The notes under the pieces were generated by a model. It did no database searches and was not told where the DNA came from. It saw nothing but the letters and a program-made list of their open reading frames with translations. The translations under genes were made by a program, and so were the position numbers. Of a stretch of 64,000 bases of DNA, positions 29,379-48,561 are shown piece by piece; the first letter of the stretch is position 1, and the number at the start of each line of letters is the position of its first letter. Source of the DNA: Escherichia phage vB_EcoM_UP17; sequence record LR746137; one strand, written 5' to 3'.

Positions 29379-29591
29379 TTAATCTTCCTCCAGATCAATT
29401 TCATTATAACAATGTATGCAGAAACCATCATTGTGCATATGTTGTTCATAAGACATATCTTTACCACAAGACCAACAACGGATATCCCCATCGTCCCATT
29501 CACGTTCTTCTTCGCCTTCAAATTCATCTGGTAGGTAAGGCATACCAAAGTAGTCTAAATCGTAACTCATATCTTCTCCTACCGAGTCCAC
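29379..29591 (-). CDS. Small acidic zinc-ribbon-like protein
   Basis: 70 aa; CWSCG ... CIHC Cys pairs, very acidic termini. Confidence 0.45.
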   Translation of the reverse strand: MDSVGEDMSYDLDYFGMPYLPDEFEGEEEREWDDGDIRCWSCGKDMSYEQHMHNDGFCIHCYNEIDLEED

Positions 29592-30157
29592 TCCTTACGT
29601 TGTTCAATATGTTCGAGCATATCGTTATACAATGTTTTAAGATGTGGAACAACTCTTTGATCTTCTGTTTCAAAAAACTTTGTAAGCTGTTCTGCTTTAG
29701 CTTTCAACCAACAAAGATGTGCTTGGAGTTCCGTATCGAAACGACCGAGTGTTATGATACGTCCTCCGATTTTAATATGGGCCTTATACTTCTTACGATC
29801 CTTCTCATAATTACATCCTACCATTTGACCTGACTTTTTTCTGTAGGCTAAAAACTTATTAAGATTTCCAGAAATCATTAAGCAAGTATCAGGGGAGTAG
29901 ACTCCCCCTCCCATAAGATCCTTATCAAGTTCCGAGTTTTCCCAGTCGTCCCAAGTTTCCAACCAAGAGTAGAAGTTGGAAAACAGCTTCCACTCTTCAC
30001 AAACCGTCACTCCATGGTAAACGACATCTCTTGCCTGTTGGCAAGATGAATAACACCTTCCCAACATTGCCATCCATTTCATATAAGCAGGGTGCATAAC
30101 CCCTTCAGGAGATCTTGCAGTAATGCTCCCATCAAAAACACCGTGACCATAAACCAT
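29579..30157 (-). CDS. AP2-domain DNA-binding protein (homing-endonuclease-associated type)
   Basis: C-terminal YKAHIKIGGRIITLGRFDTELQAHLCWLKAKAEQ resembles the AP2 fold; directly downstream of the polymerase gene. Confidence 0.4.
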   Translation of the reverse strand: MVYGHGVFDGSITARSPEGVMHPAYMKWMAMLGRCYSSCQQARDVVYHGVTVCEEWKLFSNFYSWLETWDDWENSELDKDLMGGGVYSPDTCLMISGNLNKFLAYRKKSGQMVGCNYEKDRKKYKAHIKIGGRIITLGRFDTELQAHLCWLKAKAEQLTKFFETEDQRVVPHLKTLYNDMLEHIEQRKEWTR

Positions 30158-30186: not shown

Positions 30187-32784
30187 CTAATGGCAACTCG
30201 CCCAGGAATTACCCACATCATATCCAGCAGTAAGCTGAACATTAAGATTGTAAAATTCTCCAGCCTTAGTAACAGCTAAGGCAGCAAGTTCACCTGCCCG
30301 ACTATAGGCTGTAAACCATCCACCTTTGGGAGATTCATGAATGTTAGCCCAAATTTGTCCCGTCTCTTTTTCCTTATTATGCTTCCATTCTTCAACTTTA
30401 GCAAGGCATTCTTTATCAATTTTCTTTTGTTCTTCAGGATCGTCTACTTTCTTCCAACCTAATGATTCAGGTGAAAACCATTTGAATTCTACAAGGTTAC
30501 GAGAAACTTCAAGCTGGGCTTCATCGTGATATGCAATCATTTGTTGCACGAAGTCTTTATTCTTCCAGTCATCTTTAAAGAAGTCAACACTTAGCCCTTC
30601 TTCTTCGATCATGTCATCATAAATAACCATTGCACGTTTAGCACAGATAACCCCACCACTTTGGAACAGAGAGTTAAGAATCGCGTGAGCAGAACGAGTA
30701 GGAACCTTACGACCGTCAATACCCAAAACATATTGTTTACCAGTCTTAACCCAAAAATCGTTTAAACGTTCTTTAAGACGCGCCAATGGGAATGCAGCTT
30801 CCCAGAAAGCATCGAACACCAATTGACCTGTAAACTTGTCGCTACCAATTGTTTTAGCAACCTTGTCGGCTTGTGCACCATAGGTAATACCATACTTAAC
30901 AGATTTAGCAGGACTACGTTCAAATTTACGTCCAATAGTTTCAGTGATACGTTTTGCCATCATTGTGTGAACATCGTTAGGTTTCTCTAACAACAGAGCG
31001 TTACAATATTCGTGTGGCTCCGGCTCGTACCGCCAACAGTAGTGTGATTCAATTTTTGCTTCCAAAGAGTCGAAGTCGTAGCCGATCTGGAAGTATTTAG
31101 GAACCTCTACACCAAACAAGTTACGCATCTCCCACCCAAACAAAGATGTGACACGAGGAATATTAGCTACAGATCTATGCTTCATACGAGAGGTTGCAGC
31201 ATCACATGTAGCGGCTGGGGTAGGAATACGCCCATCCGCCCTTACTGCGGCTAAGAAACCTTTATCGTATTCTTGATCTTCTTCATCTTCTTCCCAATCA
31301 GCACCGCCACCTAAAATAGAGTTCCTACGATGCTTATACGTTAAGTATTCTACAATCTGTGTAGCATAAGGGAATTTCTCACCTAAAGCTTGCAGGTTAG
31401 GACAGATTTCTTTTTCCTGACCTTTGGTAAAACATGGGTTAGTCAATACTTTAAGACCGCGACCTTTACCTTTTGCTATACGCTCTTGAATCTTCCTTTC
31501 CAGGGTTTCCGGTGTGCACTCCAGATGATCACAACGATCCTGACAAAAATTAGAAGATAGGGTTTGCTCAACGTAAGCTCGAATACCTTTCTGAAGTTCT
31601 TCCTCGCTCTTTTTAATCTTGGTGCCAGATTTAAGAGTCAAGTCTTTATCTTTATATTCAGACGGTACCCAACCTAATCCTACAAGCCAGTTTTTAATAT
31701 GGGTTGTATCGTTCAATGTTGCAGGAATGTTAGGATCACATAGAGGCTCATCTGCTGCAACTGGCAGTTTCCACTCTTTCCCCAACATAACTAACCACCA
31801 ATCGCCATCCCTCTCTTCCAAATGACCATCATGTTTCTTAGCAAAATTGATCATATGGTTAGTTGGCTCTAAGTTCTTTTTAATTTGCAACTTAGGTGGA
31901 ATAAAAGCCTTAAGATAACCTTTTGTTGCTGGTTTAGGTGGCAAAATAGGCTCAACAAGTAAACGAAGACGCTCCATTTCTGCATCCAAAAAAGCAAGGT
32001 TCTCTTCTGCTTGTTTCATGTTAAAAGCAAACCCACGGTGTTCCTGGCGTGTAATAATGTCTGCTACACGTTGTTCAAGTTCAAATGGACCTTCCCATTT
32101 ATCATAATCACCCCATTCTTCCATAAGGTAATTATATACGCTCGTATTGGCTTTGTTGTCATAGATACAGTAATAAAGCATATCCGCAGCAAAAGTCTTA
32201 AATCGATCTTCTTCTGGAATCTCTTTACGGAAATCTATTTTTACATCACCACCTGCTTTTCGAGAAAGTGCTGCCAAGCTATGTCCTGATTTGCCCTCAA
32301 TCTTTCGATCTGGGTTTAACACTTTACTCAAAATCAAGGAGTCAATAAGTTTTACCTTATTTTTGCCCCACGTATTATATTTAACACTGTAATCTAATCC
32401 ATAAAACAGTTTTGTAGCCAACCAGTCGTAGTTGATACCGTTGTGAGCCACAGCCATTTCAACCAGATATTCAGGCTTGTCTTTAAAATAACCTTCATGA
32501 TTAATAAAATCTGGGAAATCTTTTAGTTGAAAATGTGTGTAATCTTGCGCCACATACTCTTTAAGAACATATGTGTATTTACCATCTGACTCTTCATAAG
32601 GACGCCCATCAAAGATGTATTTAGGGCCATCGTGGAAAGCTACTATTTCTCCTGTTTCATGGTTCTCTAAGACAATACAGTGCATTTGAAATGTGTCTTT
32701 GAGACGATAAGGACTAGCTAAATAATCAATAGTGTCATTATTCAACAATCCGTTTGCTTCAATATCCCATGTAAACTTACTCAC
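30187..32784 (-). CDS. DNA polymerase, family A (T7-like), with 3'-5' exonuclease domain
   Basis: 865 aa; Exo I-like DIEANGL at the N-terminus; motif A-like GYDFDSLEAKI; motif B RSPAKSVKYGITYG; motif C AYHDEAQLE. Confidence 0.85.
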   Translation of the reverse strand: MSKFTWDIEANGLLNNDTIDYLASPYRLKDTFQMHCIVLENHETGEIVAFHDGPKYIFDGRPYEESDGKYTYVLKEYVAQDYTHFQLKDFPDFINHEGYFKDKPEYLVEMAVAHNGINYDWLATKLFYGLDYSVKYNTWGKNKVKLIDSLILSKVLNPDRKIEGKSGHSLAALSRKAGGDVKIDFRKEIPEEDRFKTFAADMLYYCIYDNKANTSVYNYLMEEWGDYDKWEGPFELEQRVADIITRQEHRGFAFNMKQAEENLAFLDAEMERLRLLVEPILPPKPATKGYLKAFIPPKLQIKKNLEPTNHMINFAKKHDGHLEERDGDWWLVMLGKEWKLPVAADEPLCDPNIPATLNDTTHIKNWLVGLGWVPSEYKDKDLTLKSGTKIKKSEEELQKGIRAYVEQTLSSNFCQDRCDHLECTPETLERKIQERIAKGKGRGLKVLTNPCFTKGQEKEICPNLQALGEKFPYATQIVEYLTYKHRRNSILGGGADWEEDEEDQEYDKGFLAAVRADGRIPTPAATCDAATSRMKHRSVANIPRVTSLFGWEMRNLFGVEVPKYFQIGYDFDSLEAKIESHYCWRYEPEPHEYCNALLLEKPNDVHTMMAKRITETIGRKFERSPAKSVKYGITYGAQADKVAKTIGSDKFTGQLVFDAFWEAAFPLARLKERLNDFWVKTGKQYVLGIDGRKVPTRSAHAILNSLFQSGGVICAKRAMVIYDDMIEEEGLSVDFFKDDWKNKDFVQQMIAYHDEAQLEVSRNLVEFKWFSPESLGWKKVDDPEEQKKIDKECLAKVEEWKHNKEKETGQIWANIHESPKGGWFTAYSRAGELAALAVTKAGEFYNLNVQLTAGYDVGNSWASCH

Positions 32785-33578
32785 TATTCCTCCTTTCTAA
32801 TGTTCTCCAGAACCCACTGAAGTTCTTTTAAACTTAAACTTCTTACTCCCGCAGTTTTACTAGCTTCAGCTTTAAGTAACGGGTAAGCCTCAATGATACG
32901 CGTTTTAAGATCAGAAGTCAAGGCTTTTAAAAAATAGGTAGATGCTTCAGATAAAGAATCTTCTTCTGATAACACTTTACCTGCACTTGCCCCCGCTCTC
33001 CTAACGGCTATATCGTAGTCTTTACTGTTACCTAATACGAATAGTCGATTCTCTCCTAAAACAACGGGAGAACGCTTCTCGTTGCGTTTAATCCATATCT
33101 GGAATACACAAGGAACATCCCAAGGTTCTCCATGAAGAATAAAAGACCCTTTTGGACATTCTTCTTCGTAAAGAAGATGCATATGGGGATTTAGTTTGTG
33201 TGCAAAAAAGATTTTTTGAAATGTGCGAGGCAAGATAAAACAAATACCACCTTCGTTATCCAGCATTTCAGCACAATGGTTAAAGAACTTAATGGCAAGA
33301 CTAGCATTTTTTCCAAATGGAGGATTACCGACAAAAGCAGTTACACTACCAACAGACTCAACAGATTGAGCTAAAAAATCTGCCTCAATACAATCTTCAA
33401 ACTTAGGGTCAATATCAAAAGAAGTTATGTTTTTAAAACAAGAAGAGAAAGCTCCTTCTCCCGCAGATGGTTCTACGTAGTTAGCTTCCTCTCCAAAAAT
33501 TTCTTTGATCTTATCACATAAGAACCCCGCATAAGCGGGGTTAGTGTAATATTGATCAAGTGTGTTCAACTTGCTCAA
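32784..33578 (-). CDS. DNA methyltransferase (N6-adenine or N4-cytosine class)
   Basis: Motif I-like EPSAGEGAF and motif IV NPPF (D/N/S-PP-Y/F class); 264 aa. Confidence 0.65.
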   Translation of the reverse strand: MSKLNTLDQYYTNPAYAGFLCDKIKEIFGEEANYVEPSAGEGAFSSCFKNITSFDIDPKFEDCIEADFLAQSVESVGSVTAFVGNPPFGKNASLAIKFFNHCAEMLDNEGGICFILPRTFQKIFFAHKLNPHMHLLYEEECPKGSFILHGEPWDVPCVFQIWIKRNEKRSPVVLGENRLFVLGNSKDYDIAVRRAGASAGKVLSEEDSLSEASTYFLKALTSDLKTRIIEAYPLLKAEASKTAGVRSLSLKELQWVLENIRKEE

Positions 33579-34089: not shown

Positions 34090-34113
34090 TTTAATAAAAG
34101 GGCCGAAGCCCTT
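34090..34113 (-). terminator. Rho-independent terminator (minus strand)
   Basis: GGGC-TTCG-GCCC hairpin followed on the minus strand by UUUUAUUAAAAAU; overlaps the stop of the primase-helicase gene. Confidence 0.5.
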
Positions 34114-35890
34114 AATAGTTGCTATCCGTAGGCAAATTAGCAGGATTGTTGAAATACTGCTCTTTGTCATGCAGAGTTGCAGTTCTAATGTCATAGTAAA
34201 ACTGCCCTGCCGGACCAGTTTCCGAGAACTCACGGTTTTTTAGGATAAAGCAATGAGTCGTATTGCGTTCTACAGGGTCTTCAGCGGCTTTATCTCGTTC
34301 CAGAGCCAAGGTAATACCAGCACCTTTAGCCAAGAAACTACTACCCATTGCATCGTCCTCTGTTAAGTGTTCATTGCCACCATTAGCCGATTTCTTAACG
34401 TGTGAGATGACGATAATAGTTATAGCATACTCTTTCATGATGCGCTTCAACCATGTTGCTAACTCTTCCTGGGCTTGAACATCCATACCAGAAAGCAAAT
34501 CAGAATAAGGGTCGATAACAAGAATTGTTACTCCAAAATAGATGATCATCTCCAAAACTTTTTCTTTGATAGACTCCACATCTGCTCCACGATCATCACA
34601 CACATAAAAACGTGGTGATCCATCTTCTCTTTCGTAAAAATCTAGGATTTTTTCTTTATTCTCTTCCAAGATTTGAAATTTCTCTTCCGGTGTTTTCCTG
34701 TGTAGAGGAATATGCAGGAACGAGGACAACAGGTTACGAGAATATTTCTTATAAGTTGCTTCCAAGGACAGAATACCTAGGGTATGTTCTGGGTGCGCAA
34801 CAATAATATGTTTGGTGATCTCGTTCACCATCAAAGTTTTACCGATACTGGTCTTTGCCAGGATAACTGTAATCTCTTCCTCTACTAAACCACCACCCAG
34901 CATGTTTGCAGCTACACGCATAAAAGGAGGCAAGGTAATCATCTTGGATTCCAAGCATTCTAATGCGGCTTCATACAAGACATTAGAAGCATAAACACCT
35001 GCTGGGGTGTATAGACGAGCACTCCAAAAAGCTTTTACGAAATCTTTTGCACGACCTTCTTCCAGATACTGATTGGCATCCTTAAGATCCATCTGCATAC
35101 GGTAGACTTTGTTACGAGGCAGCACCTTAACAATATTTTCAAATGCCTCATTACCTGCTTTGTCATTATCCATGCAAACAATAATCTTCTTAAATTTTTC
35201 AAAGAAAGGGTATTGTGCCTGAACTTGTTTATACATACTGGTTTCACCAGTTGTGCCACTAACTACTGCTGGGAGTTCATATTTGTTGTCCAAGTTTTCA
35301 GACAGCATTTGATAAGCTGCCAGAGCATCGTGTTCACCACCTGTAATTACCACAGTGTGAGAACGGTCTGCAAAACGAATTTGTCCAAAAAGATCTACAT
35401 CTTTACCTACTTGACCAATAGGTTTACTGAAATCTTTAGGATGAATACGACGCTTAAAACCAACCAATTCTTTACCGATGGTAGTTGGATATAAACAACT
35501 TTCTACTACCATCTGGTCCCCTTCCTGACGGTATTCATAACGAACACCATAGAAAGATGAAACTTTTTCTTTAATGCCTCGATAACCACGTGGGTTGGTT
35601 GATGTTTCTTGAACAATTTTACGATGAATCTGTTTATTAAATTCCGAACCCACAATCTCCTCCTCTTCTTCTAAAACTTCACCATTTTCTCGTAACCATT
35701 CTACGCTAGGAATAGTGTATTCACACGCAAAGCACTTAGCACCTTTATGCTCTCCATTAGAATCTAATCCATAAACCATCAGGTTATTACGAGAGCGATC
35801 CTTGCCATTTTTCATGCAGCGCGGACAACCTGTATGCCCTTCCTTGCTAAGATCAACATCAAATCCATATTTAGTTATAATGTGCGACAC
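34112..35890 (-). CDS. Primase-helicase (T7 gp4-like): zinc-binding primase, TOPRIM, DnaB-like helicase
   Basis: N-terminal CPRC ... CFAC zinc ribbon; TOPRIM ITGGEHDALA / VCMDNDKAG; Walker A AKTSIGKT; Walker B-like ILVIDPYSDL. Confidence 0.8.
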   Translation of the reverse strand: MSHIITKYGFDVDLSKEGHTGCPRCMKNGKDRSRNNLMVYGLDSNGEHKGAKCFACEYTIPSVEWLRENGEVLEEEEEIVGSEFNKQIHRKIVQETSTNPRGYRGIKEKVSSFYGVRYEYRQEGDQMVVESCLYPTTIGKELVGFKRRIHPKDFSKPIGQVGKDVDLFGQIRFADRSHTVVITGGEHDALAAYQMLSENLDNKYELPAVVSGTTGETSMYKQVQAQYPFFEKFKKIIVCMDNDKAGNEAFENIVKVLPRNKVYRMQMDLKDANQYLEEGRAKDFVKAFWSARLYTPAGVYASNVLYEAALECLESKMITLPPFMRVAANMLGGGLVEEEITVILAKTSIGKTLMVNEITKHIIVAHPEHTLGILSLEATYKKYSRNLLSSFLHIPLHRKTPEEKFQILEENKEKILDFYEREDGSPRFYVCDDRGADVESIKEKVLEMIIYFGVTILVIDPYSDLLSGMDVQAQEELATWLKRIMKEYAITIIVISHVKKSANGGNEHLTEDDAMGSSFLAKGAGITLALERDKAAEDPVERNTTHCFILKNREFSETGPAGQFYYDIRTATLHDKEQYFNNPANLPTDSNY

Positions 35891-35902
35891 TTTGTTCTCC
35901 TG

Positions 35903-36181
35903 TTAAAATGGTTCGTTAGTCTCCATCATATATTCTGCTTCTAGTTCTTCCATGTGCTTTCTAAATTGGAAAGCAATTTCTGCTACAGTTACATTTAAAT
36001 CTTTTTCAAAAACTTCTGTAGAGCCTTCGTAAAAACGAATACCGTCAATTAAAAGCCCTCCGTGGTAATCCCAATCACTTTCACGAGAAAGCGGGTTAGG
36101 CTCTTCATAATAGTAATCCACCTCCACGACTAAGGCTTTCCCGTTACGAGTGGTGTATTCAAAATCAAAAGTGTTAATCAT
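35903..36181 (-). CDS. Hypothetical protein
   Basis: 92 aa ORF; stop/start overlap with the downstream gene. Confidence 0.5.
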   Translation of the reverse strand: MINTFDFEYTTRNGKALVVEVDYYYEEPNPLSRESDWDYHGGLLIDGIRFYEGSTEVFEKDLNVTVAEIAFQFRKHMEELEAEYMMETNEPF

Positions 36182-37125
36182 TATAGCTCCTCAAATAAAA
36201 GTCTACGACGCTCATTCAACACATCAATGTGATAATGAGTCCTGACATACTTAGCTAATGCTAATCCTTTCTCCATGCAAACATCGGGAGCACTTAATAA
36301 GTATTCCGTAATATCTTTCCACTCGGAAGGTGTTTCAGCAAAGAATAGCAGATCTTTAAACTCTTGTGTATGATAATTCTCACGAGGAGAACAGATCAAA
36401 GGTAAACCCTTAGCACCTGCCTCAAGAATTTTAAGATTGCTTTTTGCATTGTTAAACACGTTATCAATCAATGGCGCAAGACTGATTTGATGACCATCGT
36501 AAGATTCCATGTAGTTGGCATATGGTCTTACACCTTCATAAACACAAGTTGGTGCTACATTTTCTCTGATCACAGACCATTCACGACTACTTAAAACTTC
36601 AGAATCCCTACGAAAACCACATATTGTAAGATCTTTACCAAAATCGGGCAAGATAGCCAAATCTTGTTTATGTGTTTCACTTCCAGCCCAGACTAATGGA
36701 GTTTTGGAGTAGCGATCACGGGTCAACACAAATTGGCCTTCATCGTAAGGAAGTCCATTAGGGATTATGTGCACATTATCATTGTATTGTGAAAGTTCAA
36801 CTTGCAAAGCAGGTGTCGTAGTTGTAACAAGATCGCTGTGCTCTAAAAACCATTTTAAATGTTCACGAATACCTGATTCAAAAATACCTTCTAACATGTG
36901 TCCTTTTGGAATAACTAAAGAGTCATCCAAATCCATAACCATTTTAAAGCCTAGGTTTTTAAGGGCTAAAAAGCCCTCTTTACCTTTTGTTGGCACCCCG
37001 TTAAAAACGAAAACGTTGTGTTTAGGTTGTGAAGAGAACTGCCTTGAGTAAGGCAGCACTACCCTATGGAAATCGCAGACACTATAATTGATTCCGTTAC
37101 GATTGTCAAGAATTATTTGTCCCAT
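36181..37125 (-). CDS. Glycosyltransferase (GT-B-like), paralog 1
   Basis: 314 aa; clearly paralogous to the adjacent 315 aa protein (NNAKSNLKILEAGAKGLPLICS vs NNCKSNLKILEAGAKGIPIVCS; shared WAG..H..DL and NALP(F/Y)D.GQF blocks). Confidence 0.5.
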   Translation of the reverse strand: MGQIILDNRNGINYSVCDFHRVVLPYSRQFSSQPKHNVFVFNGVPTKGKEGFLALKNLGFKMVMDLDDSLVIPKGHMLEGIFESGIREHLKWFLEHSDLVTTTTPALQVELSQYNDNVHIIPNGLPYDEGQFVLTRDRYSKTPLVWAGSETHKQDLAILPDFGKDLTICGFRRDSEVLSSREWSVIRENVAPTCVYEGVRPYANYMESYDGHQISLAPLIDNVFNNAKSNLKILEAGAKGLPLICSPRENYHTQEFKDLLFFAETPSEWKDITEYLLSAPDVCMEKGLALAKYVRTHYHIDVLNERRRLLFEEL

Positions 37126-37132
37126 ACTTCAC

Positions 37133-38080
37133 CTACAAACTTTCAATAACCTGGCGTCGCAACTCGTTTGCATCTGCCAGATTATAATGTGTTCGAACAT
37201 GTTCAGCCAAGAACAAGCCACGATCTTCCCGATAGTTTGGATTGCGAAGAAGCTTAACAATTTCGTAATGCCATTCTGCTTTATTCTCTGCGTAAGCAAC
37301 AGCGCGAGCATCTACAGGGTTAAAATAAGGTAATACCTTAGAACAAACAATTGGAATACCTTTTGCTCCAGCTTCCAGGATTTTGAGATTACTTTTACAA
37401 TTATTAAAATCATTATCTACCAAAGGAGCTATAGCAATAGCATGACTTTCGTAAACACTCATGTAATTATCTAAATCTTTTACAGCGGCTTTATATTTGG
37501 CATTTGGTAAATTTCTGCGAATCTTAATCCACTCTTGTCCTGTGATGCTTTGTGATGCTTCATATCCCGCAATAGTAAGAAGTTCATCATCGAAAGTATT
37601 AGAGACTAGTCGTAAGTCTGGTTCGTGACTAGCACCGCCAGCCCATACAACAGGGGTACCGGATGAACGATCATTTGACAAAGTGAATTGTCCACTATCA
37701 AAAGGAAGTGCATTTCGGATCACAACAACATTCCTATTTAAGTGACGGATCTTATATGCCAAATATTCCGTGGTTACAATAACCACATCCGCAAGCTTAA
37801 CCATAGCTACAATAGCATGAGTGTTTGACTCGTATAGACTTGCTAAATAATGTTCTGGATTGAGTTGGTAGAAATCATCTAAATCTACAACAATCTTAAC
37901 ACCTTGACGTTTCAAAGATAAAACGTATTCTGCACCTTTAGAGTGGATACGGTTAAACACAACAACATCTTTCTTAGGTTGAATATTATTGTTGTTAAAG
38001 GGCATAACAATACGATGATAGTCACAACCGCTATGAGGTTTTGCATCAATTTTTAGTTTAGACCATTTTTTATTTGACAT
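37133..38080 (-). CDS. Glycosyltransferase (GT-B-like), paralog 2
   Basis: 315 aa tandem paralog of 36181..37125; contains a 10-bp tandem direct repeat at 37541-37560. Confidence 0.5.
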   Translation of the reverse strand: MSNKKWSKLKIDAKPHSGCDYHRIVMPFNNNNIQPKKDVVVFNRIHSKGAEYVLSLKRQGVKIVVDLDDFYQLNPEHYLASLYESNTHAIVAMVKLADVVIVTTEYLAYKIRHLNRNVVVIRNALPFDSGQFTLSNDRSSGTPVVWAGGASHEPDLRLVSNTFDDELLTIAGYEASQSITGQEWIKIRRNLPNAKYKAAVKDLDNYMSVYESHAIAIAPLVDNDFNNCKSNLKILEAGAKGIPIVCSKVLPYFNPVDARAVAYAENKAEWHYEIVKLLRNPNYREDRGLFLAEHVRTHYNLADANELRRQVIESL

Positions 38081-38753
38081 GTGCTAGTGCCTCCTCATAG
38101 GAAATTCGGATTTTCCCATTTTTAATATCCTCTAAAGATGCTTTATATTCTTCCCAGTTAATCCCAATAGCAGCTTCTTTCTCTTCTTTTGTCAGATTAG
38201 CAAAAGGCATAGGATTGTTTCCAAAAACATCGTCTGGGTGGATATAAGCCATGATACGAAGTGGACAAGGTGTTGCCTGAATACCATGATTCAAACCAGC
38301 AGCTTGCAAACGGTGTCCCCATTCAGCATCTTCAAAACCATAACCGTGAGTGTAAGGACGGAAATAACCCATCTTCTCAACAACGGCACGAGAATACATT
38401 GCAAATTGACACATTGCAAGTTCCCAGAGAATAACTTCTCCTTTGCTTCCAACAACTTTATCTTTGAAATACTCCGGCATACCAAAGAAATCCCATCCTC
38501 CAGAGACAGCTTGATCTACAAAGTATGTTTCCCATCCCTCCATGACTGGGTAGCAATCGTCGTCAAAAATAAACCAATAATCATAACCTTCTTCATAAAA
38601 CTGGTGCATAAGTTCATTCCTGGCATAAGCTACACCTTTACGATCTGGATCGTTGAATACTCGAAAATCTGCACGTGGATCTGTTACAAGGTAGTCTTTA
38701 AGTGGACGGACACCTACAGTGATAACACCCACTCCGATTTTAATATTTTCCAT
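38070..38753 (-). CDS. Glycosyltransferase, GT-A fold (DxD type)
   Basis: N-terminal IGVGVITVGVRP; DDD (FIFDDDCY) motif and YGFEDAEW block typical of GT2-like enzymes. Confidence 0.45.
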   Translation of the reverse strand: MENIKIGVGVITVGVRPLKDYLVTDPRADFRVFNDPDRKGVAYARNELMHQFYEEGYDYWFIFDDDCYPVMEGWETYFVDQAVSGGWDFFGMPEYFKDKVVGSKGEVILWELAMCQFAMYSRAVVEKMGYFRPYTHGYGFEDAEWGHRLQAAGLNHGIQATPCPLRIMAYIHPDDVFGNNPMPFANLTKEEKEAAIGINWEEYKASLEDIKNGKIRISYEEALAHVK

Positions 38754-38761
38754 TTTCTCTC

Positions 38762-39325
38762 CTAAATAGTTTTACTGTGATCATGACAGTGTAATAAATG
38801 ATGTATAGACCGTTGAGGATTTGTTTGACCTAATCTGTAAATGTGAAACAGATACATTCCCCGCATCAATCCTAACCTCTTTCCTTTTTCATGTAAAGTG
38901 CGAGAGAAAATTAAGTCGAATTGGATAGATTTTTCTTCGAAAGGAATTTCATTCCACAATGATTTTCTAAAAAGCAAAAAGAAACCTGCCAGAGGTGTTC
39001 CGAAAGGAACTTCTTCAACATTTACTTTATGATATTCTCTTGCAATCTTAGCATATTCTATATGGTTTAGAATATCGGGATCATCGTTAATTTGGTTAGA
39101 GAAAAGCTGATAACCACTACCTAACCTGTTACAAGTTGCACCTATTACATCAAAAGGCGGGTTTGACATAACAAGCTCTTCAAGCAAAGATGGTTGATCA
39201 GGTAGGAGGAACATCGTATCGGTATCTCTTAAACACACCCAACTATCATCTGGAAGAACGGCAATGGCTTCATTGATAGCCTTGCCGATATTTCCTGTCA
39301 GATAGGGAGTAATATAATAAATCAT
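38762..39325 (-). CDS. Possible second GT-A-like glycosyltransferase
   Basis: 187 aa; DxD-like CLRDTDTMF motif; adjacent to three other glycosyltransferases. Confidence 0.35.
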   Translation of the reverse strand: MIYYITPYLTGNIGKAINEAIAVLPDDSWVCLRDTDTMFLLPDQPSLLEELVMSNPPFDVIGATCNRLGSGYQLFSNQINDDPDILNHIEYAKIAREYHKVNVEEVPFGTPLAGFFLLFRKSLWNEIPFEEKSIQFDLIFSRTLHEKGKRLGLMRGMYLFHIYRLGQTNPQRSIHHLLHCHDHSKTI

Positions 39326-39341
39326 TCTCCCCTCCGTTATA

Positions 39342-39533
39342 TTAACTGTCGGCTACAATCCCACGTTTAATCATTTCCTGTTGGATCTGGATCACACGAT
39401 CTCGTGCTTCCATGTATTCTTTAAAAGATTCTTGGAGATGATCACGAGCTACATCCCGTAGTTTAATCAGTTTGTCGTTTGTCACTTCTTGAAGAGAGAT
39501 CTCGCCAGTTTCATTGGTCCCAAGCGTTTTCAT
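39342..39533 (-). CDS. Hypothetical small protein
   Basis: 63 aa ORF. Confidence 0.4.
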   Translation of the reverse strand: MKTLGTNETGEISLQEVTNDKLIKLRDVARDHLQESFKEYMEARDRVIQIQQEMIKRGIVADS

Positions 39534-39741
39534 TTACAACCTCCTTAATAGCTACTGCACAGTTCTTACAAATACATTGACCTTTGTTCTTAGAAATTTC
39601 AATGTAAGGTTCATTTTCGTTTTCTCCGCGTCGTGAGTCGTATATTACTGTATTGAAGCAGACAACGCAAATGTTTTTAATAACGACATATTTTTGCACT
39701 TTTTGTTTAGTGCGAAAATTGACTTCAATGACTTCTCCCAT
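39511..39741 (-). CDS. Small zinc-ribbon-like protein (start revised to internal ATG)
   Basis: CVVCF ... CICKNC Cys pairs; internal ATG at 39741 has a GGGGAG RBS and overlaps the upstream stop (TGATG), preferred over the track start at 39789. Confidence 0.4.
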   Translation of the reverse strand: MGEVIEVNFRTKQKVQKYVVIKNICVVCFNTVIYDSRRGENENEPYIEISKNKGQCICKNCAVAIKEVVNENAWDQ

Positions 39742-40648: not shown

Positions 40649-41251
40649 TTATGGACATTCATACCATTCTTTTTTACCACCGAAGGCCATCACCACATCG
40701 CAAATATCCAGACCAGCTTTACCTACACCATATGCTTTCAGCTTCCATTCCCCATCTTCACGAACCAGCGAAGCCACGTGGCAGATTGTGTTGCCAGCTA
40801 CTTCAGGAGCCAGGAAGTCAAAATCCAGAATTTCCACATTGCGCTCGGAGTCGAAGATTTTAAGCATACCTTCAGAAGCATGACCAAAACGTTTCAGACC
40901 TGTATCATCATCAATGGTCAGAACAAAGGCAATCTCTTGTGCATCAGGAGAGATTTTAGCCAGAGTAATATCAATCTGCTCCATGCTGCCAGTTCCATCA
41001 CGAACATCGTCACCAGCGAAGGTAGAACGTTCAGGATCAAACTTGTTAGCATAGCAAACCAGATGACGTGCAGACAGCATTTCAGGATTGCCAGCGGCAT
41101 TATGACGACAAACCAGTGCACTTACATCCAGATCCAGTTTAGAATCAGATTTCCAAGAGAATTCCAGGCGCAGTTCTTTCAGAGCCGGAGCAACTTTCTT
41201 CAGGGAAATTTTTTCGCTAGAACCTTTTTTCAGGGAAATTTTATCAGTCAT
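40649..41251 (-). CDS. TerD-domain protein
   Basis: 200 aa; N-terminal MTDKISLKKGSSEKISLKK; core LDLDVSALV ... GDDVRDGTGSMEQIDITLAKI ... IAFVLTIDD typical of the TerD/CABP fold. Confidence 0.75.
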   Translation of the reverse strand: MTDKISLKKGSSEKISLKKVAPALKELRLEFSWKSDSKLDLDVSALVCRHNAAGNPEMLSARHLVCYANKFDPERSTFAGDDVRDGTGSMEQIDITLAKISPDAQEIAFVLTIDDDTGLKRFGHASEGMLKIFDSERNVEILDFDFLAPEVAGNTICHVASLVREDGEWKLKAYGVGKAGLDICDVVMAFGGKKEWYECP

Positions 41252-41266
41252 CTTTTGTCTCCTCTA

Positions 41267-41536
41267 TTATTTAAGTGTAATACCAGTTACAGTCAATTCT
41301 ACTTCCAAAAGCTTAGATGTGTTTTGGATTGATACTAATTGTGCATGATGGTTTAGTTCTACAGCAGAATAATCATTTTCCCCATCATCTACTTTTAAAT
41401 AAACAATGATTTCACTAAGGTCTAAACCATTTTCGTCAAATGCATTTTCATAGACGAAAGTATCTCCTACATCCAAATCTTTAATGGTAAGGCATCGTTT
41501 ATTTACTTTTTGCTCATCAATTTCGAAGTTTAACAC
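41267..41536 (-). CDS. Small protein, paralog B of a duplicated pair
   Basis: 89 aa; shares (D/K)DLDVG(D/A)TF and V(E/D)L(T/E)VT(G/N)ITLK blocks with 42558..42836. Confidence 0.5.
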   Translation of the reverse strand: MLNFEIDEQKVNKRCLTIKDLDVGDTFVYENAFDENGLDLSEIIVYLKVDDGENDYSAVELNHHAQLVSIQNTSKLLEVELTVTGITLK

Positions 41537-41765
41537 TTCTTCCTCCTAATGTTATCTCCGGTTTGTATATACGAAGAATTATAGCATTTTCATTTTCTTT
41601 GTCAACCCATTCTTCATAATCGGGCCATACATGAATCTCTACTCTACTTACAATATCTTCCATTCGCACAGTCCCAATGAAATACTCTTTGAGACTGCGC
41701 ATAATGAAAGCTTCTCTCTCGCGCCAATAATTTTCTACGACTTGAGAGGCAAGCTCGTCGATCAT
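41517..41765 (-). CDS. Hypothetical protein
   Basis: 82 aa ORF, translationally coupled. Confidence 0.45.
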   Translation of the reverse strand: MIDELASQVVENYWREREAFIMRSLKEYFIGTVRMEDIVSRVEIHVWPDYEEWVDKENENAIILRIYKPEITLGGRSVKLRN

Positions 41766-42556
41766 TTTTTAGCACCTACTTTAACAACCCACTCTCCGAA
41801 CTCTTCAGATAAGAGTTTGTCATAAAGCTCTGAATCTGTCAAGTCTAAATCTTTAATGCCAATAAAACCAACATTATCATAAGCATTTGCCAGTTCTTTC
41901 AGGAAGCCAAACTTCTCATTACCAACGCCAACCATGAACCAATAAATAGGTTTATTCTTATTCTCTTCAATAAGACGACGAACAGCACTAGGATCACCAT
42001 TCTCACCATCCGTTTGGAAGAATACAACACCAGGGGTAACGTCAGCACCTGGTTCAGATACAGCTACAACCTTTTCACGCTCTACAGATACTGTTTCAGT
42101 TTTACCAAGCAGACGATTAAAGAAGCCTTTCTTTGGAGCCTCCTCTTGTACCACTTGTTTAGTGGTAATATATTTGGTAACAGTGCCAAAATACTCGTCG
42201 TAGATATCTGCCATTACAGGGGCGTAGTTTGTTCCACCTCCGATACGAACATTACGCATACATTTACCAACATAATCATCGTAAACGTCTGCTGTTGCTG
42301 GGGTAAGCTCTTGAGAACTCGTATTGAAGGCCCACATATCAATTTGTTCATTATCGTCGAACAGCATACCAAAAGGAAGCAGTTTACCTACAAAATCACT
42401 CACTACCCCACTAGAATATAGACCATGCATACTACCAGAAATATCTAGAGCACATGCTACACGAAGAACAATCTTACCTTCATTCAGGTTCTTATTCTTT
42501 TTCAGAGAGAAAGCAAGGTTTTCTTGACGTTTTTTCAGGCTGATTTTCTCGGACAT
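41762..42556 (-). CDS. vWA-domain protein (TerY-like)
   Basis: MIDAS motif DISGSM; GGTNYAPV; VVFFQTDGENGD; N-terminus MSEKISLKK resembles the start of the TerD-like protein. Confidence 0.6.
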   Translation of the reverse strand: MSEKISLKKRQENLAFSLKKNKNLNEGKIVLRVACALDISGSMHGLYSSGVVSDFVGKLLPFGMLFDDNEQIDMWAFNTSSQELTPATADVYDDYVGKCMRNVRIGGGTNYAPVMADIYDEYFGTVTKYITTKQVVQEEAPKKGFFNRLLGKTETVSVEREKVVAVSEPGADVTPGVVFFQTDGENGDPSAVRRLIEENKNKPIYWFMVGVGNEKFGFLKELANAYDNVGFIGIKDLDLTDSELYDKLLSEEFGEWVVKVGAKK

Positions 42557-42557
42557 A

Positions 42558-42836
42558 TTATTTCTCCTTCTTAAGTGTAATATTGGTAACTTCTAAATCT
42601 ACTTCCACCATATTTGTATCTGGTGGGATGCAATGAGTATAGCCTCGTTGTGCTAGTGATCCATTAATACAGATCGCACTGTTTGTGGAATTTTTAATGA
42701 ACACCAAGTTACGGTAGGTATCCAACCCTGCGTCTTCATAGGCATCATAATACATGAATGTGGCCCCTACGTCAAGATCTTCGAAAGCAATAGGTAAATC
42801 CTGACCTTTTTCTTCTTGAATATTGAATCTAAACAC
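42558..42836 (-). CDS. Small protein, paralog A (start revised to GTG with AGGAGG RBS)
   Basis: GTG at 42836 is preceded by GAGGAG and aligns with the N-terminus of paralog B; the track ATG at 42902 would overlap the upstream gene by 74 nt. Confidence 0.45.
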   Translation of the reverse strand: MFRFNIQEEKGQDLPIAFEDLDVGATFMYYDAYEDAGLDTYRNLVFIKNSTNSAICINGSLAQRGYTHCIPPDTNMVEVDLEVTNITLKKEK

Positions 42837-43392
42837 GCATACCTCCTCTACCAATTTTGAAGCCCAAATCGTAAGCTTCCTTAGTGATCTTTTGTAACTC
42901 ACTTATAGGAAGTGTTACAAGAGGATCATCTTCTTCAATTTCCATCTTGTCATCTTCTGTTTCAATGAGAGTATTATGCACTTTGTGATAAGGGTTGTCA
43001 ACACGTTTAAACTTATTCTTTTCTGTGCTGAAAAAACAATCTGGATCTTCTTCACCATCACCCCAACCTTGATTAGGATCTCCGTCAGATTGTTCTGTAG
43101 GGATTTCACCTGTAAAGTACTCTTCCAGCACCATAGCAATACCGTCCCTTGGATTTGAGGAATGCATTAAATCACAAACCTTACCCCAATCCATAGCCCA
43201 TTCGAACCGTTCACGAACGCCATTTTCATCCTCTTTTCCAGAGAAAACACAACCATAACTATCATAGTTGCCATACATCTCTTCAATAACAACACCGTCT
43301 TTCAAAAGAAAGAGGTAGCAAGGTGATCCGTCGAAAGAAGTAGAAAGGGCAGCTTTGCCCGATTCTTTGCACAAAAAACTAAAACAACCCAT
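42829..43392 (-). CDS. Hypothetical acidic protein
   Basis: 187 aa ORF. Confidence 0.5.
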   Translation of the reverse strand: MGCFSFLCKESGKAALSTSFDGSPCYLFLLKDGVVIEEMYGNYDSYGCVFSGKEDENGVRERFEWAMDWGKVCDLMHSSNPRDGIAMVLEEYFTGEIPTEQSDGDPNQGWGDGEEDPDCFFSTEKNKFKRVDNPYHKVHNTLIETEDDKMEIEEDDPLVTLPISELQKITKEAYDLGFKIGRGGMRV

Positions 43393-43589
43393 TACAAACC
43401 CTCCTTCAGATTATCAAGAGCTACAGTGGTTTCACAAAATTCTCCATAAGCTTTATGATGTTCCAGAAAAGCTTCGGGTCCACCCCAGTCATTATCTTGT
43501 GTATTCCAGCCATCAATAAAAGCATCTTCAATGATTGTGATCAGTTCCTGTCGAGTCAACGTAATGGTATCAGGCTTTGGATTATGCAT
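43392..43589 (-). CDS. Hypothetical small protein
   Basis: 65 aa ORF. Confidence 0.45.
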   Translation of the reverse strand: MHNPKPDTITLTRQELITIIEDAFIDGWNTQDNDWGGPEAFLEHHKAYGEFCETTVALDNLKEGL

Positions 43590-43755
43590 CTTCTTCCTCC
43601 TCTAAAATATGAAACCCATAGCTACAATAGTCCTGAAAGGTTTCGTGTGCAAGATCTTCTATATCCTCTTGAGACATATCATCTTCAATTTCGATATCCA
43701 CAACCTCATTGCATCCACACCAAGCAGTTTCAATATTCACCCGTAATATTTTCAT
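43582..43755 (-). CDS. Hypothetical small acidic protein (57 aa)
   Basis: ATG overlaps the upstream stop (TAATG) and its stop overlaps the downstream start; contains WCGC. Below track cutoff. Confidence 0.3.
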   Translation of the reverse strand: MKILRVNIETAWCGCNEVVDIEIEDDMSQEDIEDLAHETFQDYCSYGFHILEEEEDA

Positions 43756-43952
43756 TACTCCTCCTCCTCATTGAAGTCAATATCTGCAAGGAGTTGGAAT
43801 TTACGGAAGTTACGACAACCTTCATAAATATAACAATCACGACAAACTGCTAGAACACTTGGGGGATATATGCCTCCCATCGGTGCGAATCGTTTTTCGT
43901 CATCATAACGGACACCAATGTCTTCATCAATTATATAGATACGGATTCTCAT
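43755..43952 (-). CDS. Small Cys-containing protein
   Basis: 65 aa; CRDC ... C motif. Confidence 0.4.
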   Translation of the reverse strand: MRIRIYIIDEDIGVRYDDEKRFAPMGGIYPPSVLAVCRDCYIYEGCRNFRKFQLLADIDFNEEEE

Positions 43953-45061
43953 TTACCAAGCCCTCGTTTCACAGCAGCTACCATCCCGTCTTCCAGAGAT
44001 TGAACTTCATTAATATAATCAACACGAGCAGCACGGGCTTCCGTATTGATGCGGTTAGTTTCTTCCAACATCTTAACCAAGTTTTCCTGATCGTGACGCA
44101 GAGTTTCAATATCCAACACTTGACGGTTAGCCAGTGCTGCTGCTTCGATCTGATTCTGTGTAGCAAGATCGCTACCCAGTTTAATTGCCAGGTTAAATTC
44201 ATCAAGAACGTTATTCTGCGTCTCTGCTGCTTTCATTTGACGTAAGCTCTCGATATACATTGAGAAGTTAGCAGAGTAAGCAGGAATAACATTATTTACT
44301 ATGTTACGCGCAGATCGCATTAAGCTTGCAGAAACTTTTTGCATACCTTGTACACGCGGTCCCATTTGGACACACAGTAGGCGCAATGCCTTTAAATCTG
44401 CAATACGAATCTCCAGAAGATCCAAAGTGTCTCGGATCACTTGTCGCTGTTCTACTGCATCTTCTGGAAGAGCAGCCAAAGCTTGTTCTTCTTTTTCATA
44501 GGTTGCTGTTAGAAGCTGCATATCTCGGTTCAAACTTGCAGCATATTGTCCAATAGCTTGATGCAGTTTTTCAAGATATACCAAGGAATCTTCTTCTTTG
44601 CGAATATCCATTTGAAGGTTCTTTACCAACTCTTCAATACGGTTATTAACATTATCAAACTCCCCAAACAGGTCTTCTTTCATACCCATAACTTTTTTAA
44701 TGAGTTTAGTAATACCTTTGCTTTGTTTAATAGAGTTTGGATCAAGTTGTTTTGCCTGTTTAATCAAAGCTGTGAGTCGTTCACTCATCTGATCGCCTTG
44801 ATTACTACGTTGATGTTTTAATACCTCGGCATTCAAGGAACGCAAGGTTGTTCCTGCCTCTGCCCCAATCTCTTCGATCTCTTGTCGGGTCATAGAAGGC
44901 AAAACTGGAACGTCTTGTGGTGCCGCTGGTGCATAAACAGGACTGGCATCTAACACGCTTGGAGCGAATACAGATTTACTTGCATCTGTTGTTGCAGCAA
45001 ATACGCTCATTTCAGGCTTCTTCTGACCACCAGTAGCTGCTTTTAAAAATGGACTTGTCAT
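43949..45061 (-). CDS. TelA/KlaA-like (toxic anion resistance family) protein, tentative
   Basis: 370 aa, largely helical/coiled-coil composition; size and placement inside a cluster with TerD, TerC and vWA genes. Call is by gestalt, not a specific motif. Confidence 0.4.
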   Translation of the reverse strand: MTSPFLKAATGGQKKPEMSVFAATTDASKSVFAPSVLDASPVYAPAAPQDVPVLPSMTRQEIEEIGAEAGTTLRSLNAEVLKHQRSNQGDQMSERLTALIKQAKQLDPNSIKQSKGITKLIKKVMGMKEDLFGEFDNVNNRIEELVKNLQMDIRKEEDSLVYLEKLHQAIGQYAASLNRDMQLLTATYEKEEQALAALPEDAVEQRQVIRDTLDLLEIRIADLKALRLLCVQMGPRVQGMQKVSASLMRSARNIVNNVIPAYSANFSMYIESLRQMKAAETQNNVLDEFNLAIKLGSDLATQNQIEAAALANRQVLDIETLRHDQENLVKMLEETNRINTEARAARVDYINEVQSLEDGMVAAVKRGLGK

Positions 45062-45648
45062 TCTTCATTCTCCTCTTCTGCATCTCTTATATATGGTGAA
45101 ACACCGTACTCTTTAGCTACTTTAACCCAATCGTCCCATTTATACAACCATAATTTTCCTTCGGTCCCTTCTTTATCTGATTTCAACCACATATTCGGTT
45201 GCTTACCTGGGTACATGCGATTAGGTTTACGATTATAACCTCTAACACATCTTGTCGCAAACCTATCTACCAGAACAAGAACATATTTATATTCGTGGTT
45301 CAACGGCTCTTTGGAAGTGGCTTTAGGATTAGCCCCTAATTCTGCTGCCAGTTTTTGCCAATGAGCACCGTGCCTACTAAACTTACCCATACAACCATCA
45401 ATAGCATGAGCAATTTCGTGCTTCATTGTATCCACGATCATATCTCTTGTGGAGTTCTTATGCAAGTGCCAATTTACAACAACAATTTTATCTCGGTAGT
45501 TGCACCAACCGAAAGAGTTATTCACTTTGTTTCTAACACAAGCTTTATATCCTGCTTCACGTAACATGTTGTAGTAAACAGGAAAATCTTCTTTTATTTC
45601 CTGCATCACTTCCCACCACAAGAGTTGCAAGTCTCTCTCGGTATGCAT
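45058..45648 (-). CDS. Zinc metallopeptidase-like protein (HExxH, SprT-like)
   Basis: HEIAH motif in MKHEIAHAIDG; 196 aa; acidic C-terminal tail. Confidence 0.45.
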   Translation of the reverse strand: MHTERDLQLLWWEVMQEIKEDFPVYYNMLREAGYKACVRNKVNNSFGWCNYRDKIVVVNWHLHKNSTRDMIVDTMKHEIAHAIDGCMGKFSRHGAHWQKLAAELGANPKATSKEPLNHEYKYVLVLVDRFATRCVRGYNRKPNRMYPGKQPNMWLKSDKEGTEGKLWLYKWDDWVKVAKEYGVSPYIRDAEEENEE

Positions 45649-45651
45649 AAC

Positions 45652-46245: not shown

Positions 46246-46259
46246 TGTTTTTCTCCTTA

Positions 46260-46697: not shown

Positions 46698-46884
46698 ATT
46701 TGCTTTCCTCGTTTTGGCTATTAATACATCTGTGTTTGAAATCTCCAGAGAAGCAATAAAGTTGCTCTCCATCTCGGTATAAACTCACTTTACTGCCGTT
46801 GATTACGCTTGTCAATACAAAAATTACAACAAACAACCCTATTGCAAAACAAATATTTTCAAACACAATCAACAAGTATTTCAT
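46639..46884 (-). CDS. Small membrane protein
   Basis: 81 aa; hydrophobic N-terminus LLIVFENICFAIGLFVVIFVLT; ATG overlaps the upstream stop (ATGA); its 3' end overlaps the lipoprotein start by about 59 nt. Confidence 0.4.
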   Translation of the reverse strand: MKYLLIVFENICFAIGLFVVIFVLTSVINGSKVSLYRDGEQLYCFSGDFKHRCINSQNEESKYEKTSPDFNWLYLFNSLRG

Positions 46885-47231: not shown

Positions 47232-47240
47232 AAGTCTCTC

Positions 47241-47266: not shown

Positions 47267-47273
47267 TCATCTA

Positions 47274-48555: not shown

Positions 48556-48561
48556 CTCCTC

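Follow-up and report, generated by a model that had tools for sequence, protein, structure and literature searches.

A conserved cluster of four soluble glycosyltransferases in phAPEC8-like coliphages and its possible role in virion glycosylation

Four consecutive glycosyltransferase (GT) genes inside the replication block of a coliphage raise the question of which molecule their products glycosylate. The window analysed here, a stretch of 64,000 nucleotides, belongs to a Phapecoctavirus (phAPEC8-like coliphage) with 99% identity to published genomes. The preliminary description of this DNA had proposed four consecutive GTs at 36181-39325, and the open reading frames (ORFs) match this interval exactly on the minus strand. 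In the direction of transcription, the gene order is GT187, GT227, GT-B, GT-B, orf92, primase-helicase, orf143, methyltransferase and PolA. GT187 (38762..39325, minus strand, 187 aa) opens the cassette and is followed on the same strand by GT227 (38070..38753, 227 aa), GT-B paralog 2 (37133..38080, 315 aa, pI 8.5) and GT-B paralog 1 (36181..37125, 314 aa, pI 5.7). The small acidic protein orf92 (35903..36181, minus strand, pI 4.2) comes next, with the primase-helicase downstream of the GT block (34112-35890, minus strand) and the DNA polymerase PolA at the end of the order (30187-32784, minus strand). The island had been placed between primase-helicase and polymerase, which is wrong: it lies upstream of the primase-helicase, and only the methyltransferase sits in that interval. 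Each of the four GT ORFs is preceded by a Shine-Dalgarno-like sequence, with minimal gaps or overlaps between them, and they are real genes forming one tight, co-oriented block. The scan for promoters and terminators inside the cluster returned nothing above shuffled controls, lending weak support to co-transcription. The block is located among replication and nucleotide-metabolism genes, away from structural genes, and adjoins a Ter-type module (TerC, TelA, TerD, vWA, ComF-like PRTase, HAD and Macro). The arrangement had been called atypical, which is relative: it is a constant feature of more than 120 published genomes in Stephanstirmvirinae. The group is a known one among E. coli phages, and the four enzymes are already annotated there as GTs, all four genes bearing the RefSeq name 'glycosyltransferase'.

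The division of the products into two GT-B paralogs and two GT-A-like enzymes holds according to paralogy, motifs, PHROG and Pfam matches and structural models, with zero NCBIfam matches for the four GTs and the methyltransferase. The 314-aa protein, which carries the motif KSNLKILEAGAKG, and the 315-aa protein share 41% identity (E 9e-78) and are tandem GT-B paralogs of the GT4-like type. The former scored marginally, right at the Pfam cut-off for Glyco_trans_1_2 (25.2 bits versus 25); the latter stayed below it (20.4 versus 25) and below that for Glyco_trans_1_4 (22.8 versus 27), matched phrog_7162 at 3.1e-149 and contains every invariant column of the GT-B family alignment. One GT-B protein was modelled (pLDDT 94) as a pair of Rossmann-like domains separated by a cleft, and its best structural neighbours include WlaC/PglH, PglA, PimA, WbnH and WaaG. 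The GT-B profile found weak GT4 matches among PDB sequences (TreT 6e-4, PglA 0.02). GT4 enzymes, which have the GT-B fold, are retaining. Compared with bacterial GT4 enzymes (PglH/WlaC, PglA, BshA, PimA, WaaG), the phage GT-Bs are shorter (about 314 versus 360-400 aa), share merely 10-15% sequence identity with them and lack the conserved second glutamate of the EX7E motif; as read from the alignment consensus, K228, K232 and E235 are conserved and that glutamate is not.

The two remaining proteins both present the DXD acidic motif for metal and nucleotide-sugar binding. GT227 has the invariant residues F-D64-D65-D66 and Y138-G-x-E141-D142, and matched phrog_2456 (1.2e-78) and phrog_1579 (5.9e-13); its Pfam matches (TAGT, Glyco_transf_7C and GT2) were all sub-threshold. 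Aligned by hhalign with Mycobacterium phage Taj gp107, it reached 99.2% probability (E 1.8e-19, 195 columns), and by these sequence features we classify it as a predicted GT-A-like glycosyltransferase. GT187, modelled as a single Rossmann-like GT-A fold (pLDDT 92) with invariant D34-x-D36 (DxD) and H161, is predicted from the model to be a minimal GT-A-fold glycosyltransferase. Single-sequence and profile searches of the PDB gave nothing useful for either protein. Their two profiles showed no relationship in hhalign, so the GT-A proteins are not paralogs. None of the four GTs contains a transmembrane helix (highest 19-residue Kyte-Doolittle mean 0.76-1.65); all are soluble proteins of glycosyltransferase fold.

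The cluster is syntenic throughout Stephanstirmvirinae, and the four GTs occur in identical order in Phapecoctavirus, Justusliebigvirus (including phi92 gp163-166) and metagenomic relatives (~50% amino-acid identity). Small temperate phages carry a GT187-GT227-GT-B cassette too, there next to genes for lysis, packaging and the head. In a Serratia prophage, lysis genes are followed by GT187-like, GT227-like and GT-B genes, HNH and terminase, and lambdoid contigs have GT227-like and GT-B genes immediately before lysozyme and terminase. A 46-kb phage shows TerL, GT-B and GT227-like genes, then portal, cement and capsid, while Pseudomonas prophages show an Ig-like Big_2 protein, GT227-like, GT-B, metallopeptidase, TerS, TerL and portal. 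In Cellulophaga Helsingorvirus, the order is portal, head morphogenesis, methyltransferase, a GT with a GT187 domain, protease and capsid. GT187-GT227-GT-B is thereby shown to be a mobile three-family unit shared by lytic myoviruses and temperate phages. Bacterial genomes searched with the GT227 profile yielded six loci, all prophage-like and none in polysaccharide loci; two were inspected closely, a third consists of near-identical phage DNA, and the remainder were assigned by similarity. The GT-B family was likewise met only in phage or prophage-like contexts, unlike bacterial GT4 enzymes, the bacterial scan having used the GT227 profile. Distant lone GT-B relatives on viral contigs neighbour hexapeptide acyltransferases, GT2 proteins, SAM methyltransferases and terminase/portal genes, a neighbourhood that reads as a putative glycan-tailoring toolkit. 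Packaging-adjacent genes may also be DNA-modifying, as with Mom, and a Mom-family protein occurred once among these neighbours.

The preliminary description had suggested T4-like sugar hypermodification of the phage DNA. In the wider form of this reading, which is also a published conjecture, the GTs would move rhamnose or other sugars onto a modified base and so evade nucleases. The GT genes do lie in a replication block near primase-helicase and PolA, and rhamnosylation of hydroxymethylated nucleotides was proposed by Olsen et al. 2020 (PMC7552041) and repeated later (PMC10844046). GT227 is weakly similar to TAGT and, locally, to the PHROG of the T-even beta-glucosyl-HMC alpha-glucosyltransferase (7.6e-6), and its R...DDD...ED pattern resembles motifs described for phage DNA GT-A enzymes (bioRxiv 10.1101/2023.12.21.572611). 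However, the TAGT match, at 19.5 bits, fell short of the 27.5-bit cut-off and spanned residues 32-68 only, and none of the four GTs matched the Pfam families of T4 BGT or AGT. T4 AGT and BGT do appear among the structural matches of the GT-B model but rank below many ordinary GT4 enzymes, and the GT-B, as modelled, appears no closer to the T4 DNA glucosyltransferases than to ordinary GT4. Three of the four GT proteins are acidic, a further point against a DNA acceptor.

The known DNA GTs (T4 alpha and beta, the T-even arabinosyltransferases of HY126 and RB69, and TAGT) have no 5hmC-, 5hmU- or 5hoC-making partner in this phage, and they use UDP-glucose or UDP-arabinose, whereas the nucleotide sugar implied here is dTDP-rhamnose. 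That no hydroxymethylase was recognised in the window is borne out by a Pfam scan of its 21 unassigned ORFs of at least 140 aa, which revealed no ThyA homolog, TET/JBP/5mYOX, 2OG oxygenase or C5-methyltransferase either. The search for hydroxymethylase or other base-modifying genes was extended beyond the window to the remainder of phAPEC8, a near-identical genome. There, 34 mostly 'hypothetical' ORFs with a length of at least about 135 aa contained no Pfam-recognisable base hydroxylase, hydroxymethylase or C5-methyltransferase, although smaller or strongly divergent enzymes might escape such scans; the only phAPEC8 thymidylate synthase is ThyX-type and annotated as similar to rV5 and PVP-SE1 proteins. 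Temperate phages of ~40 kb that carry the cassette had no base-modification genes within its 10-kb flanks. In addition, Justusliebigvirus Bas60-62 carry an orthologous four-GT cluster and are reported to be exceptionally susceptible to restriction-modification systems, despite their dTDP-sugar machinery (PMC8594841). The Stephanstirmvirinae literature, as searched, contained no data from restriction digests, nucleoside analysis or glycoproteomics. With no base hydroxylase found in these scans and GT-carrying sister phages reported as sensitive to restriction-modification, T4-like hypermodification is not supported, DNA glycosylation as such seems improbable, and the popular idea of rhamnosylated DNA is poorly supported. 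A narrower version appears more doubtful still: together with the rml operon of the phage, the GT cluster would place sparse or sequence-specific rhamnosyl groups on DNA via an unrecognised base-activating enzyme. Such groups would not block classical type I-III restriction and would therefore have escaped notice, but they could counter other defences. Rhamnosylated DNA would be without precedent, and the chemistry behind it a new way of glycosylating DNA. The earlier caution over the substrate, and the mention of a glycan other than DNA as the alternative, were appropriate.

A DNA methyltransferase nearby had been counted in favour of hypermodification. The 264-aa ORF (32784..33578, minus strand) does contain NPPF and xPxxGxGxF motifs and matched phrog_799 'DNA methyltransferase' (1.1e-10), with Pfam Eco57I merely sub-threshold; its RefSeq name is putative N6-adenine MTase, and it is probably an amino-type (N6-adenine or N4-cytosine) DNA methyltransferase. 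Nevertheless, an amino-type enzyme makes no hydroxyl handle, and the gene is absent from the corresponding position in Justusliebigvirus BME3, which retains all four GTs. We therefore judge it to be genomic context and not part of the GT module.

The sugar supply offers another clue to the function of the cluster. RmlA-D are encoded by phAPEC8 and by TSP7_1, the closest relative, and the phage rmlABCD (dTDP-rhamnose) operon, which lies outside the window, co-occurs with the GT cluster in the large lytic lineage; rml genes are also present in Bas60-62 (on the basis of JohannJBalmer). Phage RmlC was found under Escherichia (105), Klebsiella (8), Campylobacter-labelled (5), Phapecoctavirus (3) and Justusliebigvirus (3) names, and outside actinophages this distribution mirrors those of GT227, GT187 and GT-B. 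From these sequence comparisons, we tentatively favour the possibility that the four GTs glycosylate one or more structural proteins of their own virion, as putative acceptors, with a rhamnose-containing glycan. The module, consisting of two GT-A enzymes and a duplicated GT4-like GT-B, would serve conserved glycan assembly during lytic growth, and its product may be a short glycan that contains rhamnose and is attached to an acceptor other than DNA, most likely structural proteins of the virion, so that the particle would wear a glycan coat made by the phage. At least one GT would use dTDP-rhamnose; the enzymes could act sequentially, one initiating on the acceptor and the others extending, and the duplicated GT-B might add two different or successive sugars. 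Points against this reading are the retaining mechanism of GT4 enzymes, the location of the block among replication rather than structural genes, and the DNA-modifying role that packaging-adjacent genes can have.

The only other phage homologs of GT227 are about 360 mycobacteriophage GTs. Virion-glycosylation loci of mycobacteriophages, as outlined in PMC11256854 and PMC12363180 (citing Freeman et al. 2023, PMID 37329881), include Che8 gp108-110 and Taj gp107/gp109 in cluster F1 and Myrna in cluster C. Che8 gp110 is described as essential for capsid glycosylation in PMC12363180 (citing Freeman 2023). Its Taj counterpart, gp109, shares 85% identity with it, and Taj gp107 is located two genes further upstream. 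The cluster resembles these loci in comprising several soluble phage-encoded GTs in a non-structural gene block, in the full-length homology of GT227 to the N-terminal GT-A half of Taj gp107, and in the methyltransferases that related small-phage cassettes also include. It differs in its Gram-negative host, in having a GT4-like GT-B as the constant component and in its dedicated dTDP-rhamnose pathway. An equivalence of GT227 with Che8 gp108 was rejected, as the two do not match and the homolog is of the Taj gp107 type; GT187 matched none of Che8 gp109, Che8 gp110 and Taj gp109. Since no homolog of Che8 gp108, gp109 or gp110 was detectable, the mycobacteriophage link consists of one variable partner enzyme plus synteny, and shared GT-A domain homology does not fix the acceptor. 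Chlorovirus PBCV-1, whose A064R and partners glycosylate its own capsid without host machinery, likewise combines several transferases of GT-A type with genes for making a nucleotide sugar (rhamnose); with this eukaryotic giant virus the analogy is one of logic only.

The same sugar supply would fit O-antigen or ECA-type chemistry, and the GTs could instead remodel host-envelope glycans, acting from the cytoplasmic side on intermediates that are lipid-linked or belong to the LPS core (such as Und-PP-GlcNAc or the core oligosaccharide) and altering or depleting receptor glycans. Superinfection exclusion, less loss of progeny on debris, or sequestration of Und-P that aids lysis would be the benefit. 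Among the best structural neighbours of the GT-B are enzymes that act on undecaprenyl-PP-linked and lipid acceptors, entry of these phages depends on surface glycans and LPS core (PMC8594841, PMC11990801), and such a role was speculated on in the ZCKP1 paper (PMC6141743). However, the absence of transmembrane segments speaks against it, and we saw neither a flippase or polymerase nor an initiating phosphoglycosyltransferase in the neighbourhood. Gtr-type O-antigen cassettes comprise a GtrA flippase, a membrane-anchored GtrB and a polytopic GtrC, none of which occurs in the GT neighbourhood, and in temperate phages the present cassette occupies the late region by lysis and packaging genes, not the attachment site as seroconversion genes do. 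Bacterial polysaccharide loci gave no homologs with the GT227 profile, and replacement of outer-membrane glycans would probably be slow for one lytic cycle. On balance, envelope remodelling is rather unlikely. A further conceivable product is a soluble glycoside or some other small metabolite, for instance a disaccharide or a compound resembling a glycosylated nucleoside, perhaps made together with the adjacent Ter-type module. The probability of this is low: the cassette lacks Ter/PRTase genes in temperate and small phages, four transferases exceed the needs of a simple disaccharide, and no sugar-phosphate phosphatase is coupled specifically to the GT genes.

A virion rhamnose glycan, if true, would be the first described among phages of Gram-negative bacteria, for which we know of no previous description of virion glycosylation. 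Mycobacteriophage virion glycans have been shown to affect antibody recognition, clearance and stability, and a virion glycan here would bear on the same properties in Phapecoctavirus and Justusliebigvirus, two genera with very wide host ranges whose phages are entering therapeutic and biocontrol cocktails. The weak case for rhamnosylated DNA redirects experiments, and the GT187-GT227-GT-B cassette, often located by head and packaging genes, offers deletion and mass-spectrometry work a defined target. In one assembly, both GT-B genes are fused into a single chimera, indicating that the full complexity of the cassette is not needed in the laboratory.

The small protein orf92, which matched phrog_4240, is an uncertain member of the GT module. 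It is missing from the temperate-phage GT cassettes; in the large lytic relatives, it always lies between the GT-B gene(s) and the primase-helicase. Homologs of 88-89 aa, with 35-43% identity and an SDWDY-GG motif, occupy the same position in three of these loci.

The four glycosyltransferase (GT) genes form a genuine, previously annotated island. At positions 35900-39600 the sequence matches about 64 published Phapecoctavirus genomes, among them phAPEC8, TSP7_1, tuntematon and ESCO13, with 98-99% identity, and the colinear counterpart of the window lies at approximately 73.6-138.2 kb of phAPEC8. The four ORFs are gp071-gp074 in RefSeq phAPEC8, each already labelled 'glycosyltransferase', so that the island itself is no new find. 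On the minus strand they run head to tail as GT187 (38762-39325, 187 aa) and GT227 (38070-38753, 227 aa), both GT-A-like, followed by GT-B paralog 2 (37133-38080, 315 aa) and GT-B paralog 1 (36181-37125, 314 aa), with a ribosome-binding site before every one and minimal gaps or overlaps. The coordinates, ribosome-binding sites and PHROG matches confirm the preliminary description of four consecutive GT ORFs at 36181-39325, and the tandem GT-B paralogy was also correctly recognized (41% identity, E 9e-78). GT227 carries an invariant F-DDD plus YGxED motif, with several GT-A matches in Pfam, all sub-threshold, and strong glycosyltransferase matches in PHROG; no relationship between GT187 and GT227 was detected in profile comparison. 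All four proteins are soluble and three are acidic. In the direction of transcription, the gene order is GT187, GT227, GT-B, GT-B, the small orf92, primase-helicase, orf143, methyltransferase and PolA. The island therefore precedes the primase-helicase gene, rather than lying between primase-helicase and DNA polymerase as had been reported.

The most economical reading is that the cluster would constitute a soluble, multi-enzyme glycan-assembly module, which could be fed by phage-made dTDP-rhamnose and would act on a non-DNA acceptor. The same four genes and flanks were found in Justusliebigvirus (including phi92 gp163-166 and the BASEL phages PaulScherrer, EmilieFrey and JohannJBalmer) and in Klebsiella phages. 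They are also kept in metagenomic relatives whose proteins share just about 50% identity, where the order is TelA, vWA, TerD, cell-wall hydrolase, small ORFs, GT187, GT227, GT-B, GT-B, an 89-aa ORF, primase-helicase and PolA. RmlB, RmlA, RmlC and RmlD are encoded by phAPEC8 outside the window (Pfam-confirmed), and TSP7_1, the closest relative, likewise has rml genes. In 50,697 phage records, RmlC hits have a taxon profile that agrees closely with that of the three GT families when mycobacteriophages are set aside; we infer that phage-made dTDP-L-rhamnose is the donor for at least one of the GTs.

One Justusliebigvirus alia assembly (L020, OZ035770.1) lacks about 0.93 kb relative to L009 8094-9025. 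In-frame recombination at equivalent positions (codons ~122-140) of the tandem GT-Bs produced this deletion and merged them into one chimeric gene, which shows that the duplication is not strictly needed. Several records named 'Campylobacter phage' (e.g. MG065650 and MG065689) and 'Acinetobacter phage vB_AbaM_ABPW7' are 98-99% identical to Phapecoctavirus/Justusliebigvirus across the GT cluster; their non-Escherichia host labels probably reflect wrong assignment or contamination by coliphages.

By analogy with T4, the preliminary description had read the island as a system for sugar hypermodification of phage DNA, and its genomic position and a weak TAGT-like motif in GT227 still lend this some support. 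Known DNA glycosylation requires a base hydroxyl, derived from a ThyA homolog or from a C5-methyltransferase plus TET. Among the window's ORFs of 140 aa or more, Pfam scans of the 21 that had no other assignment revealed neither, in agreement with the earlier statement that no obvious base-hydroxymethylating enzyme was recognised in the window. The search for a hydroxymethylase in the rest of the genome, covering 34 mostly 'hypothetical' phAPEC8 ORFs of about 135 aa or more outside the window, likewise returned no ThyA homolog or C5-methyltransferase/TET, and the sole annotated thymidylate synthase of phAPEC8 is ThyX-type (annotated as similar to rV5 and PVP-SE1 proteins). The methyltransferase at 32784-33578, previously taken as support, does not serve as such: its NPPF and xPxxGxGxF motifs mark it as a probable amino-methyltransferase, and Justusliebigvirus BME3 lacks the gene at the corresponding site. 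Among structural neighbours of the modelled GT-B, T4 AGT (17th), T4 BGT (32nd) and the HY126 DNA arabinosyltransferase (40th) all rank behind ordinary GT4 enzymes, and the TAGT match of GT227 is sub-threshold and local. Small temperate phages carry the cassette too, with no base-modifying genes seen within 10 kb. The idea of DNA glycosylation had already been published (Olsen 2020, PMC7552041; echoed in PMC10844046). The BASEL phages Bas60-62 carry the orthologous cluster, yet were reported as exceptionally sensitive to restriction-modification 'despite a putative dTDP glycosylation machinery' (Maffei et al., PMC8594841). The DNA-modification reading is improbable and the least supported among the serious options.

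Among candidate acceptors for the proposed rhamnose-fed module, structural proteins of the virion come first, with a probability somewhat short of even. The constant element across related loci is GT-B, paired with GT227, GT187 or both. In the 80 best IMG/VR loci, one or both GT-A partners adjoined GT-B in 16, and the other 64 had a more distant lone GT-B (30-34% identity). Neighbours of this lone clade were enriched in hexapeptide acyltransferases, GT2, SAM methyltransferases, VRR-NUC and terminase/portal genes; no ThyA or TET family was among the 25 neighbour families listed, of 52. A Serratia prophage contains the full trio, ordered as in the window, between lysis genes and HNH plus terminase genes; lambdoid contigs have GT227 and GT-B directly upstream of lysozyme and terminase, and in a 46-kb phage the two are flanked by TerL on one side and by portal, cement and capsid genes on the other. 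In Pseudomonas prophages, the order is Ig-like Big_2 protein, GT227-like, GT-B, metallopeptidase, TerS, TerL and portal. In Cellulophaga Helsingorviruses, the GT187 domain is fused into a 407-aa GT, encoded between head-morphogenesis and protease/capsid genes and adjoining a PF13578 methyltransferase. In the prophage of Pseudomonas sp. App30 (L015), a Ser/Thr-rich Big_2 Ig-like protein is encoded at 9328-9954, directly upstream of the GT227-like gene, its GT-B partner and the packaging genes; it is a candidate for the glycan-accepting protein or for a decoration protein.

Beyond enterobacterial phages, the only phage homologs of GT227 at E<1e-3 were about 360 mycobacteriophage GTs from clusters F1 and C. 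The GT227 profile aligned with Taj gp107 over 195 columns at 99.2% probability, and two genes further downstream Taj gp109 shares 85% identity with Che8 gp110, described in PMC12363180 as essential for capsid glycosylation (see also PMC11256854). Equating GT227 with Che8 gp108 proved wrong, the partner GTs at the Che8 and Taj loci differ, and no GT187 counterpart was detectable at either locus. The tie to mycobacteriophage virion glycosylation thus consists of synteny and a single homologous partner enzyme, and is suggestive rather than decisive.

Remodelling of lipid-linked or LPS glycans is an unlikely alternative, although less so than DNA modification. The GT227 profile hit only six loci in 185,579 species genomes, one of which (L014) is near-identical phage DNA, and none had a polysaccharide-locus context (L015 and L018 in detail, the others by similarity).

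Directly upstream of the cluster lies a phage-borne Ter-type module (40649-51131, minus strand), comprising TerD (40649-41251), vWA-TerF-like (41762-42556), TelA (43949-45061), SprT-like (45058-45648), TerC (47274-48248), Macro domain (48562-49035), ComF-like PRTase_3 (49048-49875) and HAD hydrolase (49868-50524) genes. Relatives at about 50% identity keep TelA, vWA-TerF and TerD and, in one locus, also TerC. A soluble glycoside, possibly tied to this adjacent Ter/PRTase module, is as doubtful a product as glycosylated DNA; the rest of the probability falls to targets of other kinds, for instance RNA or proteins of the host. Phages of this group are in therapeutic use.

Compared with phAPEC8, the window has an insertion of about 0.6 kb directly downstream of PolA with a 192-aa ORF (29579-30157, minus strand), where phAPEC8 has about 28 bp between the flanking homologous blocks. 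The ORF matched no Pfam or NCBIfam family and could be a gene of mobile or homing type. Segments 12513-14825 and 54102-55089 had no megablast match to phAPEC8, with flanks 94-99% identical; the former belongs to the tail-fibre/tailspike region (ORF 12362-14428), where a receptor-binding module has probably been exchanged, and the latter falls inside a 448-aa ORF (53734-55080). The 'DNA methyltransferase' annotation of phAPEC8 gp117 was rejected, Pfam giving an XkdF-type prohead protease instead. ADP-ribose/NAD-related proteins comprise SIR2 and NADAR domains in phAPEC8 outside the window (L003 and L004) and the Macro domain at 48562-49035, a set that points to possible roles in counter-defence or NAD metabolism.
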